Both the position numbers and the translations under genes were made by a program. Shown piece by piece: positions 4,638-7,644 of a stretch of 64,000 nucleotides of DNA. Source of the stretch: Opitutales bacterium (lineage in GTDB: Bacteria > Verrucomicrobiota > Verrucomicrobiia > Opitutales > JABSRG01); contig JBMYOQ010000013.1 of assembly GCA_049599475.1 (NCBI GenBank), forward strand, positions 1 through 64,000, in the 5' to 3' direction. The notes under the pieces are model-generated. The model made no database searches. It worked only from the letters and a program-made list of their open reading frames with translations, and was not told the origin of the DNA. Positions within the stretch are counted from its first letter, which is position 1, and each line of letters starts with the position of its first letter.

Positions 4638-6023
4638 CTAGCGATTCAAGCGTTGGGCTACCTTATCCAAGTTTCCAGAGACAATCGCGATCTTATCCAT
4701 CTGCTCACGCAACTCCGCAGCCATCAACTCTCGGTCGTTATTTCGATCGGCGATCTCGCTCTCCAGAGCTTCTACTCTTTGCTTACGCTCGCGAAGAGTC
4801 TCTCGTAATTCATCGACTTTGGTCGTCAAGCGTGTCTCAGAATCCGTGCGCTCCTCGTGAGCTTTCTTCTCAAGGCTGAGATCCGACTGGAGAGATTTTA
4901 CAGTCTTCTTCAATTGCTCGACTTCGCCCTCGAGCTCTTCGATGCGTGTTTCCTGCTGCTTCCGCGTCATTTGAGACGCCTTCAAATTATCCGATTTCTC
5001 GTGAGCGGTTTTCTCTGAAGTCGCTAAATTTTCACGAAGCTCATCACTATTTTTCTCGAGTGAATAGATCTTCTGCTGAAGTGATTCTACTTCTGCCTGG
5101 TGCGTATCCTTCATACGTCCCATCTCCTGCTCAAACTCTCTGCGCGCACGAGCCTCTCGGCGCTGGCTGTCTTCGAGCTGCCGCTGCAATTGCTCAACTT
5201 CTGCCTGCAAATCTTGCTTCTCAAGCGTGGCATTTGTCGTGGCGCTGGCAACGGACTTCAACTTATCACGCTCAGACCTCAAACGGCTATTCTCAGTCTC
5301 AAGCTTCTCAACCCGCTCAAGCCATTTCTGATTATCCACAGCAGTTTCGCCGGAATCTTCTTCAGTAAATTTTGAGGATATCTTTGGGAGCAAATCGGAG
5401 AGCGGAATCCAGTCGTCGGAATCATCGTCCCAGCCCCAGTCAGCCATCGAAAATGTGCCCTGCTCGATCCGTGCTTTGAGGTGCTTCAGCGAGTAGAAGA
5501 TGTGCTGCTTTTCGTCCTTGAATACGTTGATCTCGTTCACGGTAGTATCTTCCTCGATGGAGGCTTGAGCTTTAAAATTCGTTGAGTCTTGGGTTTTCTC
5601 TGGTGTCGCCTCAGGCGATTCTTCAGCCGGCGGCTCCGGTGTCTCAGCGGTCAACACACGCGGGGCTTCAAGCGTCTCCGAAGAGAGGTGTCGCCACGAT
5701 GTCGATTTCGCATCCCAAGCCCACATTCCGGCTGCGAACTCTCCCGCAGCTTGCGCTTTTTCAAATGCTTCTGCCGACCAAAGGCGGGATTTCTCCGGGC
5801 TCTTTGTGTCCACGACATAGATGCCCGGTAAAAGTTGAGTGGCCTGTTTCCCGGTAGACTGCTCATGCTGTGCAGCTTCCTCTACAGTCAAAGGTCTCGG
5901 CAAAGATTCCCCAGGTGCCCAAAACAAGTTGGCATCTTGCGCCCAAGCAAGCGATTGCTCCTGCTTCGAGTCGATTGCTGGGGTAGGAAATTGCATTTTC
6001 CAGAATCCAATGCCCGTAAGCAC
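4638..6023 (-). CDS. GYF_2 (DUF4339)-like domain protein with long C-terminal coiled coil
   Basis: Two GYF_2-like segments (WSAEAFEKAQAAGEF...WAWDAKSTSWRHL; YSLKHLKARIEQGTF...WGWDDDSDDWIPL) followed by an E/K/Q/L-rich coiled coil; start at GTG 6023 or ATG 5996. Confidence 0.75.
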   Translation of the reverse strand: MLTGIGFWKMQFPTPAIDSKQEQSLAWAQDANLFWAPGESLPRPLTVEEAAQHEQSTGKQATQLLPGIYVVDTKSPEKSRLWSAEAFEKAQAAGEFAAGMWAWDAKSTSWRHLSSETLEAPRVLTAETPEPPAEESPEATPEKTQDSTNFKAQASIEEDTTVNEINVFKDEKQHIFYSLKHLKARIEQGTFSMADWGWDDDSDDWIPLSDLLPKISSKFTEEDSGETAVDNQKWLERVEKLETENSRLRSERDKLKSVASATTNATLEKQDLQAEVEQLQRQLEDSQRREARARREFEQEMGRMKDTHQAEVESLQQKIYSLEKNSDELRENLATSEKTAHEKSDNLKASQMTRKQQETRIEELEGEVEQLKKTVKSLQSDLSLEKKAHEERTDSETRLTTKVDELRETLRERKQRVEALESEIADRNNDRELMAAELREQMDKIAIVSGNLDKVAQRLNR

Positions 6024-6057
6024 CTAAGACTCAAGGACAAACCGAAGATGAGACCAC

Positions 6058-6091
6058 AAAAAAGCCGGAACGCTGGGGGGAGCGTTCCGGC
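6058..6091 (-). terminator. Intrinsic terminator directly upstream of the GYF gene
   Basis: Perfect 11-bp GC-rich stem, 6-nt loop, followed by TTTTTT. Confidence 0.85.
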
Positions 6092-6157
6092 AAATCGCAT
6101 GTTGGGTGTAACATGCAAGATGGCCGGGGTAGGCACATCGTGGGGTAACAACGATGT
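6058..6157 (-). ncRNA. Putative small RNA or structured leader with four C-rich-loop hairpins
   Basis: Stems ACAUCGU/ACGAUGU, GCC/GGC, GCAUGUU/AACAUGC and GCCGGAACGCU/AGCGUUCCGGC with loops UGUUACCCC, UACCCC, ACACCC, CCCCCC; ends in U6. Confidence 0.6.
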
Positions 6158-6158
6158 A

Positions 6159-6187
6159 ACAATCGGTCAAAAACCCCATTTTCGCAA
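6159..6187 (-). promoter_or_regulatory. Putative sigma70 promoter for the C-rich RNA
   Basis: TTGCGA-N17-GATTGT; a similar TTGATT...GATTGT arrangement precedes the gene at 32523. Confidence 0.45.
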
Positions 6188-6405
6188 GTGATTAATAGAG
6201 ATTATCAGTTCTACTTAAGCAAAATCAGCTCCATTAATAGCTATCGATTATCAACTATTAGCACCCGCCAACATATTGGTGTATAGTCATTTAGGAAAAT
6301 CCGTTTTTGCCATTAGGACGAAATTTTCTTCCCATGCACCTCTCTGATAAACCTACGCTTTTACAGAGTTTTATGGTTTTTTACAAATTTGTAAAAAAAT
6401 CTGAT

Positions 6406-7644
6406 TTACTCGTGCCTAAGCGCTTCGATGGGATTCAAGATAGCCGCTCTAATTGCGGGATAGATCCCCGATAGCACCCCGATTGCGCTGCTGAAGGCAA
6501 AGCCCAACATCATAGCATTCCATGGGACCGATTCAATGACGTCTCCTCCCGGAATCATGGTCTTAAACACTTGGATCACCGCCAGGCTGATCAACATGCC
6601 AAAAACGCATCCGAGTATACTGATGACAATCGATTCCGCTATAAACTGGATGAAGACGTCGCTACCCTGGGCACCAATCGCCTTGCGCACACCGATCTCG
6701 CGAATGCGCTCATTCACCGAGGCCAACATAACGTTCATAATTCCGATTCCTCCCACCACCAGTGAGATTGCAGCAATGCCTCCTAGGGAAAATTTGAAAT
6801 TGCGCTCGAGCTTGTTGAGTTCGGCCAGCTGATCTTCGCCTGTTTCGACCTCAAAATCTAAAATTCCGTTATGCGCGATTCGCATGGTGTTTTCGACGGA
6901 GGTCGTCACTTGGGTCAGCTCCTGGGGATCTCTGATCTTCAGAAGAATACGATTTATACTATTCTCCTCCCCTCGATGCTCCAAAGCTGTGCTCACTGGG
7001 ATCAGGGCGACCCGAAACTTCCAAAAGAGCGCATTGCGCCTCTGACCCGGATTCCCCAAATACTCTTCAGCGAGAACACCGATTACCCGATAAGAAGCCC
7101 CATTGAGCCTCACTTGTTTCCCTGTCGGAGATTCTCCTGGAAACAATTGGTTCGCCGCGTAGGGCCCCAAGACAATGACACGCTCCTTGCGCAAAACGTC
7201 CATCTCACTGATGAATCGGCCTGACTGCATCTCATAATTGAGAATAACCTGATAGTCCGGCTCTACTCCATGAACCGGCTGGGAATAGCTATTATCCTCA
7301 AATGAAATGCGCTCCCAACCTTCATCAAACCGAGTCGATGCATGGCTGACACCTTCTACCGAGGATCGGATCGCATCTATATCGTAAATGGTCATTCCGG
7401 GAGACAAGTAGGCGATTTCCTCCTGTCTTTCAGGAACTGAGTTGCGGCTGATTTCGATTTTCTCGATGCCACCCAGACTCTCGAAAGCTCCACGCGTGGA
7501 CCCAATCATCCCTTCGATAACACCCACCATTGATACCAATGCGGCGACACCGAGTACAATCCCACTTATCGAGAGCATGGTACGCACTTTATGCGCCCAA
7601 ATTTCACGAATGCTATTTATAATACCTGTCCACAGAGCACTCAT
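6406..7644 (-). CDS. ABC transporter permease, MacB/FtsX family
   Basis: GGIGIMNVMLASVNERIREIGVRKAIGA and C-terminal PIEALRHE. Confidence 0.95.
   Translation of the reverse strand: MSALWTGIINSIREIWAHKVRTMLSISGIVLGVAALVSMVGVIEGMIGSTRGAFESLGGIEKIEISRNSVPERQEEIAYLSPGMTIYDIDAIRSSVEGVSHASTRFDEGWERISFEDNSYSQPVHGVEPDYQVILNYEMQSGRFISEMDVLRKERVIVLGPYAANQLFPGESPTGKQVRLNGASYRVIGVLAEEYLGNPGQRRNALFWKFRVALIPVSTALEHRGEENSINRILLKIRDPQELTQVTTSVENTMRIAHNGILDFEVETGEDQLAELNKLERNFKFSLGGIAAISLVVGGIGIMNVMLASVNERIREIGVRKAIGAQGSDVFIQFIAESIVISILGCVFGMLISLAVIQVFKTMIPGGDVIESVPWNAMMLGFAFSSAIGVLSGIYPAIRAAILNPIEALRHE

Follow-up and report, generated by a model that had tools for sequence, protein, structure and literature searches.

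A candidate small RNA with C-rich loops at the junction of an efflux-pump and a GTPase operon in a marine member of the Verrucomicrobiota

Introduction

Among the described small RNAs that resemble the element reported here, sX13 of Xanthomonas is about 100 nt long and consists of an unstructured 5' region followed by three stable stem-loops with apical CCCC or CCCCC loops; it acts on G-rich motifs near start codons independently of Hfq (PMC3771888). The same source mentions UCCC motifs in Staphylococcus RNAs, and HPnc5490 (RepG) of Helicobacter. The 6C RNA of Actinobacteria, also named B11, presents C-rich loops in adjacent stem-loops that bind unpaired G-rich stretches, often the ribosome-binding site, with no RNA chaperone (PMC6486639).

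Here we analyze an intergenic element on the minus strand of a marine Verrucomicrobiota genome (G000), which lies between an efflux-pump operon upstream and a GTPase operon of the conflict type downstream. All coordinates refer to the window, that is, the whole stretch of 64,000 nucleotides of DNA that was analyzed. The predicted RNA and its parts are:

6058..6152, minus strand: predicted small RNA of 95 nt that begins at the expected start and finishes with the U-tract, both ends being predictions
6140..6152, minus strand: single-stranded 5' end GUUGUUACCCCAC, a candidate seed that contains the first UACCCC and that the MFE and the centroid structure alike leave unpaired, in both species
6136..6156, minus strand: hairpin 1 (H1), CAUCGU / loop UGUUACCCC / ACGAUG, -6.7 kcal/mol when folded alone
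6119..6139, minus strand: P2, GAUG-U-GCC / loop UACCCC / GGC-CAUC, from predicted folds
6095..6118, minus strand: P3, UUGCAUGUU / loop ACACCC / AACAUGCGA, -8.9 kcal/mol
6058..6091, minus strand: P4, intrinsic terminator with an 11-bp stem (6091-6064; 11 pairs, 8 of them G-C), loop CCCCCC and U6 (6063-6058), -20.5 kcal/mol

Like sX13, the predicted RNA has a free 5' end (13 nt here) and three stem-loops, and Hfq was not found in this genome. Its C runs, which can be set beside those of sX13, are CCCC in the 5' end and in the P2 loop, CCC in the P3 loop and CCCCCC in the terminator loop. Unlike sX13, it is a candidate RNA; it has no sequence or Rfam match, belongs to a different phylum and a different locus, and its P3 loop is not C-rich in G001, a genome of the same genus. 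With 6C (B11) it shares C-rich loops in adjacent stem-loops, and pairing may be supposed by analogy. The 6C RNA is conserved throughout a class of bacteria, whereas the RNA studied here has no Rfam match and occurs in 2 of 151 genomes of its order. A C-rich 5' end, P2 loop and terminator loop are found in both species, and the P3 loop is C-rich in the window only.

Other small RNAs offer more partial parallels. In RsaE/RoxS and Cuckoo, C-rich unpaired motifs, UCCC or CCUCCUCCC, pair with Shine-Dalgarno-like sequences. The motif here is (U)ACCCC, which sets the element apart from those RNAs and from the UCCC-bearing RNAs of Staphylococcus, and no Rfam match links it to them. HPnc5490 (RepG) uses a C/U-rich hairpin loop to pair with a G-rich tract in its target mRNA, and the CCCCCC terminator loop resembles it in this respect; there is no homology, and the terminator loop of G001 reads ACCCCCUA. 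CsrB and RsmZ carry GGA in their hairpin loops. An initial sequence-only reading of this DNA had likened the element to them, and it does have several consecutive hairpins with similar loops, but the single GGA within 6152-6058, at 6088, sits in the terminator stem, and we have dropped the analogy. Finally, DapZ and MicL are small RNAs produced from an internal promoter in an mRNA 3'UTR. Like them, the element follows an operon on that operon's strand, shares its terminator and is preceded by a (predicted) promoter of its own; unlike them, it is a predicted RNA, and about 215 nt separate the efflux stop codon from its promoter-like box.

Results

A single-copy, strongly folded element

The element is real, conserved and strongly folded. 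The 95-nt RNA (6152..6058) has an MFE of -40.6 kcal/mol, a structure that makes up 44% of the ensemble (z -8.2, with 0 of 200 shuffles as good), and a 116-nt stretch reaches -46.2 kcal/mol against -23.9 +/- 3.2 kcal/mol in 200 shuffles (z -6.96, again 0 of 200 as good). The folding that the sequence-only reading had proposed is thus far beyond chance, and even without the terminator the hairpins retain a z of -4.46, a value that none of 200 shuffles equalled. The opposite (plus) strand folds about equally well (z -6.51), and we assigned the element to the minus strand because of the U-tract after the stem and a U-G pair in P3.

From 5' to 3', the 95-nt RNA consists of 13 free nucleotides, P2 (4+3 bp), P3 (9 bp), a UUU linker, P4 (11 bp) and U6. 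This differs in part from the four adjacent hairpins first described. H1, the third hairpin (7-9 bp, 6118-6095) and the fourth are present, but the second is only a 3-bp helix on its own (GCC/GGC) and becomes a real hairpin, P2, only with the outer stem GAUG/CAUC (6139-6136 / 6122-6119). Because this outer stem uses the 3' arm of H1, H1 and the full P2 are mutually exclusive. The 5' arm of H1 lies at or upstream of the predicted start (about 6152), and the H1 stem is not kept in G001, where it is absent at the homologous columns and others pair (UCGUC/GGCGA). H1 is an alternative to P2 that probably does not belong to the RNA. The last hairpin was correctly recognized as a terminator (an 11-bp stem with 8 G-C pairs, followed by U6), and P4 is the sole terminator-like site on its strand between the efflux stop codon and gene 1 of the GTPase operon.

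The loops are C-rich as originally listed, but their convergence, taken as a mark of selection on structure, is by itself not beyond chance. When a cluster is defined as at least three hairpins within 110 nt, each with a stem of at least 6 bp and a G-free loop containing CCC, there is one cluster in the genome, at this locus, and two shuffled genomes likewise contain one each; lowering the stem threshold to 5 bp gives 7 in the genome and 10 and 9 in the shuffled ones. In G001, moreover, P3 has the loop UUUU. Taken by themselves, C-rich loops do not exceed what chance produces.

Several other identities were considered for the element. Both BLAST and a covariance model find one copy in the genome, and it is therefore not a dispersed repeat; the end of a mobile element was ruled out on the same count. 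Reading the region as a small ORF (51 aa, 6179-6024) was rejected, as the ATG and the frame are both lost in G001. When 1.5 kb was searched against Rfam 15 on both strands with E values up to 10, no described family, among them 6C, sX13, RsaE, Cuckoo and CsrB/RsmZ, matched at its gathering score, in keeping with the initial proposal of a new RNA. Six sub-threshold matches (E 0.5-9) were at chance level and mainly terminator-based, the best being Aar at 23.7 bits (gathering score 60) and AsxR at 22.9 bits (gathering score 63).

Conservation in a genome of the same genus

In a BLAST search of 61 related genomes, one true match was obtained, in G001, with 73% identity over 140 nt. Synteny is identical there, with the MacB-type gene, the spacer and gene 1 in the same order. 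The G001 counterpart is also 95 nt long and has the same architecture (z -7.15), with 11 free nucleotides, P2 with the loop AACCCC, P3 with the loop UUUU, and P4. What the two species share is a single-stranded GUUGUUACYCC, P2 (loop WACCCC), P3 and an 11-bp terminator with U6. Identity between G000 and G001 varies along the region as follows:

Gene of the efflux operon: 75-80%
Initial 200 nt of the spacer: 30-60%
6200-6100: 60-67%
Terminator: 87-93%, more than any other part of the spacer
6057-5999: 77-80%
Opening codons of gene 1: 90-100%
Later parts of gene 1: 50-60%

Conservation in the spacer begins at the -35-like box of the P1 promoter-like site described below. Within the RNA, 11 of the 13 bases of the 5' end and 5 of the 6 bases of the P2 loop are identical, and GUUGUUACYCC and WACCCCGG are kept while the surrounding stems change. 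In P3, whose stem is longer in G001, two pairs are changed on both sides (U-A to C-G and G-C to A-U) and one is changed on one side. In P2, which in G001 is (A)GGCG-A-CC / AACCCC / GG-G-CGCC(U), the outer stem GAUG/CAUC is replaced by GGCG/CGCC, with two double changes (A-U to G-C and U-A to C-G). We took the P2 covariation from two separate folds because gap placement in the MAFFT and model-based alignments hides it. The covariation amounts to four pairs in all, from two sequences, and the P2 pairs need gaps other than those placed by MAFFT. With this counterpart and its compensatory changes in P2 and P3, the structure is conserved in a relative.

The start of gene 1 shows a pattern of its own. 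Over the base before the ATG and the first 50 nt of the gene (5997-5947, minus strand), identity between G000 and G001 is 100%, even at synonymous sites; elsewhere the gene is 50-60% identical as DNA and 72% as protein. This suggests, at the level of sequence comparison, a constraint on the RNA or the DNA at the start of gene 1. The strongest promoter-like match of the 550-nt region also lies inside gene 1 (5950-5922, CTTGCTT-N17-TTGTTT), with scores of 11.8-14.7 here and 9.6-12.5 in G001.

Promoter-like sites before the RNA and before the operon

Two promoter-like sites lie on the minus strand in this region:

6159..6188, minus strand: P1 promoter-like site, C+TTGCGA (6188-6182), a 17-nt spacer and GATTGT (6164-6159), scored with the tRNA-promoter matrix
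6005..6035, minus strand: operon promoter-like site, C+TTGAGT (6035-6029) and ATTGGA/TTGGAT (6011-6005), with a start predicted within a few nucleotides of the ATG

The boxes TTGCGA-N17-GATTGT on the minus strand had already been pointed out, and are found as claimed (6187-6182 and 6164-6159). A scan for E. coli-type promoters on the minus strand of 6000-6290 returned nothing and missed P1, and we therefore examined the genome's own tRNA promoters. From the 53 tRNA genes identified with aragorn, we dropped the arrays on contigs C33 and C86 together with genes that have less than 120 nt of contig upstream, which left 33 stand-alone genes. In 24 of these 33, TTG[ACG]N lies 40-55 nt before the mature 5' end, in most cases with a C and an A-rich run just before it; 17 nt further along sits a weak second box rich in T (GATTTT, GATCTT, TTGATT). 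The tRNA promoters of G000 thus combine a strong C-TTGAC/TTGC -35 box behind an A-rich run with a weak T-rich -10 hexamer, and a design of this kind is therefore missed by E. coli-type scans. As for the omitted C33 array (C33:1243-4720 of G000), it contains 17 tRNA genes for different amino acids in about 3.4 kb, a type of tRNA gene array that phages or mobile elements often carry.

With a scoring matrix built from the 24 tRNA promoter sites, P1 scores 9.1, which is reached by 6e-4 of genome positions, or 13.0 (3.5e-5) when the A-rich upstream part is included. The genome contains 331 matches of at least 13.0, and 41% of them fall outside ORFs of at least 150 aa, compared with a baseline of 14.4% (2.9-fold). 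An intergenic match this strong is therefore more often real than not, an estimate that is inflated by the AT-richer composition of spacers. P1 predicts a start at G6152, the base with which the conserved GUUGUUAC opens, and CTTGCGAAAA at P1 is invariant in G001. The P1 score is weaker in G001, at 4.3-4.6, which is reached by about 1e-3 to 5e-3 of positions.

The boxes of the operon promoter-like site belong to two blocks that do not vary, TTGTCCTTGAGTCT and GCATTGGATTCT; the spacer separating these blocks does vary. The site (CTTGAGT-N17-ATTGGA) scores 6.5 in both species, and since 3e-3 of genome positions do as well, it is weak when taken alone. We also compared the conserved boxes by eye with sigma-54 and ECF-type promoters, and rejected these readings because spacing or bases misfit in both species.

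Neighboring genes

The sequencing runs that carry the window's DNA are labelled as seawater and marine metagenomes; no RNA run was among them, and the four DNA runs with the window contain the same organism only, with no variants. The efflux operon upstream of the element encodes OEP, HlyD, an ABC ATPase and a MacB_PCD+FtsX permease, and ends at 6406 on the same strand as the element. The genes on either side are:

6406..7644, minus strand: MacB_PCD + FtsX permease gene, the last gene of the efflux operon, with no terminator other than P4 for its transcripts
4638..5996, minus strand: gene 1, 452 aa, coiled coil, the first of a four-gene operon
4635-3364, minus strand: gene 2, DO-GTPase2-like, with a DO-GTPase2 match exactly at the cut-off (27.0 bits vs 27)
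3367-2546, minus strand: gene 3, GAP1-N2/GAP1-M, by family match
2549-117, minus strand: gene 4, 810 aa, without a family assignment

The four operon genes are closely spaced, with 4-nt overlaps between genes 2 and 3 and between genes 3 and 4. PADLOC reports coiled-coil matches only, for gene 1. The conserved start of gene 1 is the ATG at 5996, and the GTG at 6023 is out of frame in G001. The terminator had been placed 35-60 nt before the first gene; the figure of 35 nt holds for the GTG, but the distance to the conserved ATG is 62 nt.

Two further observations concern this region. A 23-nt perfect palindrome of A/T-only type, T7ACAAATTTGTA6 (6399-6377, minus strand), lies 7 nt past the stop codon of the MacB-type gene, in an area that is poorly kept in G001. 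Both assemblies also have a contig break at or inside the GTPase operon: the G000 contig begins 116 nt beyond the last gene, and in G001 the DO-GTPase2-like gene is split across two contigs (C57 and C17).

Distribution of the RNA and of the GTPase operon

To follow the RNA beyond these two genomes, we searched 151 genomes of the order with a covariance model made from the G000 and G001 sequences. True matches were found in those two genomes only (2/151). Five extra matches (E 0.015-0.035 per genome) were discarded, as they align to generic GCCGG...CCGGC-U6 terminators alone. In comparison, 36 of 151 order genomes have GAP1-N2, the two sets of 151 having overlapping members and possibly not being identical. 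An 18-mer from the terminator flank matched 58 metagenome stretches, and the complementary arm was found in 0 of the 58. A scan for the loop pattern matched two viral contigs, both unrelated.

Gene 1 is itself rare. Homologues occur in 3 of 401 genomes of the order (G000, G001 and G003), and a search of 401 genomes of the phylum gave 13 matches, 12 of which are weak coiled-coil matches (E 1e-5 to 9e-4). No homologue was found in JGI metagenomes or in viral contigs, and the genome_contigs collection yielded only the G001 contig. Protein relatives in ENA/Logan contigs (P0003-P0006) are 56-60% identical.

The third genome, G003, belongs to a different genus of the same family and has the same four-gene operon in another genomic context (L121:3511-9269, G003:C63), with products of 474, 421, 275 and 776 aa in the order coiled-coil protein, DO-GTPase2-like protein, GAP1-N2 protein and large unknown protein; its gene 1 is 38% identical to that of the window. 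There, the operon sits behind a divergent gene, and the 157-nt spacer is unstructured (z -0.35), with promoter-like boxes and no terminator. The MacB ortholog of G003 is elsewhere followed directly by another gene, and the element is absent. As G003 has the operon without the RNA, the RNA is not tied to the operon. Together with the counts of 2/151 and 36/151, this means that the RNA accompanies neither GTPase modules at large nor this particular operon, and the co-occurrence that the sequence-only reading had held out, along with its suggestion of an RNA component of the system, did not survive the comparison. Its connection with the GTPase system is that of a neighbor and not that of a component. 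The RNA has been seen only in genomes that place the operon head to tail behind the efflux genes, and is most likely restricted to one genus of marine Verrucomicrobiota.

This distribution also bears on whether the element has a transcript of its own. It could instead be a structured 3'UTR and terminator of the efflux operon, in which case the CTTGCGA box would not be a promoter, P4 would stop the MacB-type operon and insulate the GTPase operon, and P2 and P3 would be stabilizing or accessory hairpins. An element of this kind would be expected in the two genomes where the operon lies behind the efflux operon and not in G003, where the neighboring gene is divergent and no terminator is needed; P4 is, moreover, the only terminator-like site after the efflux stop codon on that strand, and both the weakness of P1 in G001 and the chance-level count of C-rich loops suit such a role. 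Yet the 200 nt from the stop codon to the box are barely kept (30-60%), and conservation starts precisely at the box that resembles the -35 element of this genome. The loop and 5'-end sequences are kept while the stems change, for which a mere stabilizer has no need, and in G003 the MacB ortholog directly precedes another gene with no such element between them. We regard an element of this kind, with no transcript of its own, as rather unlikely.

Could the element act on the GTPase operon in cis?

The position of the element, on the same strand as the operon and 62 nt before its ATG, would also fit a cis-acting leader. The operon would then be transcribed from P1 and kept off by P4 until some factor permits an alternative fold or read-through. 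When the RNA is folded up to the terminator loop, both species do pair the 3' side of P2, CCGGC(A), with the 5' arm of the terminator, (U)GCCGG, around P3. However, this alternative helix has 5-6 bp, against an 11-bp terminator of -20.5 kcal/mol, and the full-length MFE structures retain the terminator in both species. The 5'UTR is 77-80% identical, and the 51 nt that begin with the base preceding the ATG show 100% identity, as a regulatory leader might; but the 5'UTR and coding start fold no better than shuffles (z -0.43 and -1.23). A leader would likewise accord with the low score of the operon promoter-like site, although this site consists of two invariant blocks at -35/-10 spacing that come after the terminator. 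The orthologous operon of G003 has neither a leader structure (z -0.35) nor a terminator, so that the arrangement does not travel with the operon. The attenuator put forward in the sequence-only reading is thus a weak candidate, and we consider such a leader quite improbable.

A connection in trans is suggested by a repeated motif. CCTACCCC occurs 87 times in the genome (both strands), yet twice here on one strand, 146 nt apart (6133-6126 and 5987-5980), once in the P2 loop and once in codons 4-6 of gene 1; TACCCC is found three times within 170 nt, and the gene 1 copy lies inside the 51-nt block that is 100% identical to G001. The (C)CUACCCC sites in the RNA and in gene 1 codons 4-6 might bind the same protein or G-rich RNA, and the RNA would then act as a decoy or sponge that titrates a regulator of gene 1 translation. 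The motif was, however, noticed after the fact, and the copies in the G001 RNA read UACUCC and CCAACCCC, so that only the mRNA copy is exact there. We found no candidate binding partner either. CsrA is encoded in the genome, but this protein binds GGA, which the loops of the RNA lack. We consider a decoy of this kind highly improbable.

More broadly, the RNA could be a dedicated regulator of the adjacent GTPase operon, either as a decoy sharing CCUACCCC with the perfectly conserved first codons of gene 1 or as a terminator that transcription passes once a signal, for instance phage attack, arrives. There is in our estimation a small chance of this. If it were true, a costly GTPase system of the defence type would be held back by an RNA switch until it is needed.

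Discussion

We tentatively favor a new stand-alone small RNA of about 95 nt (6152..6058, minus strand), of the C-rich-loop kind represented by sX13 and 6C, while giving this reading somewhat less than an even chance. It is the option of an independent small RNA, among those first proposed, that best agrees with a conserved box resembling the genome's tRNA promoters, a well-defined fold with compensatory changes in P2 and P3, a strong terminator and the lack of a matching Rfam family. The weakness of P1 in G001 detracts from it, as does the P3 loop, which is not C-rich there, and a plain terminator or 3'UTR fits the distribution equally.

On the stand-alone small-RNA reading, transcription would start from the RNA's own promoter, CTTGCGA-N17-GATTGT, and stop at the strong intrinsic terminator. 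The transcript would expose three single-stranded segments rich in C and free of G: GUUGUUACCCC at the 5' end, UACCCC in the P2 loop and CCCCCC in the loop of the terminator. If these segments act as their analogues in sX13 and 6C do, they may pair with G-rich, Shine-Dalgarno-like mRNA sites and reduce translation with no need of Hfq. Transcripts coming from the efflux operon would stop at this terminator too, and read-through would thereby be kept out of the GTPase operon, whose own promoter-like boxes lie 30-60 nt further on.

Neither Hfq nor ProQ was found in the genome (96.6% complete), which fits the chaperone-independent C-loop RNAs sX13 and 6C. As for possible targets, the duplex energies of the whole RNA with the operon are no better than those of 20 shuffled RNAs, and we treat duplex prediction as uninformative because shuffled RNAs scored better. 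By sequence, a few sites in the genome are complementary to the 5' end, none of them confirmed as a gene start.

With respect to the neighboring operon, the present evidence adds no RNA part to GTPase conflict systems. The analysis does provide a usable picture of the promoters of this organism, with a strong CTTGAC-like -35 box, an A-rich upstream stretch and a weak T-rich -10 box. Among the titles listed by our literature search, none was devoted to small RNAs of Verrucomicrobiota. If expressed, the RNA would be one of very few structurally supported small-RNA candidates in this phylum, and it would add a further case of C-rich loops directed against G-rich ribosome-binding sites, in a lineage with no detected Hfq or ProQ.
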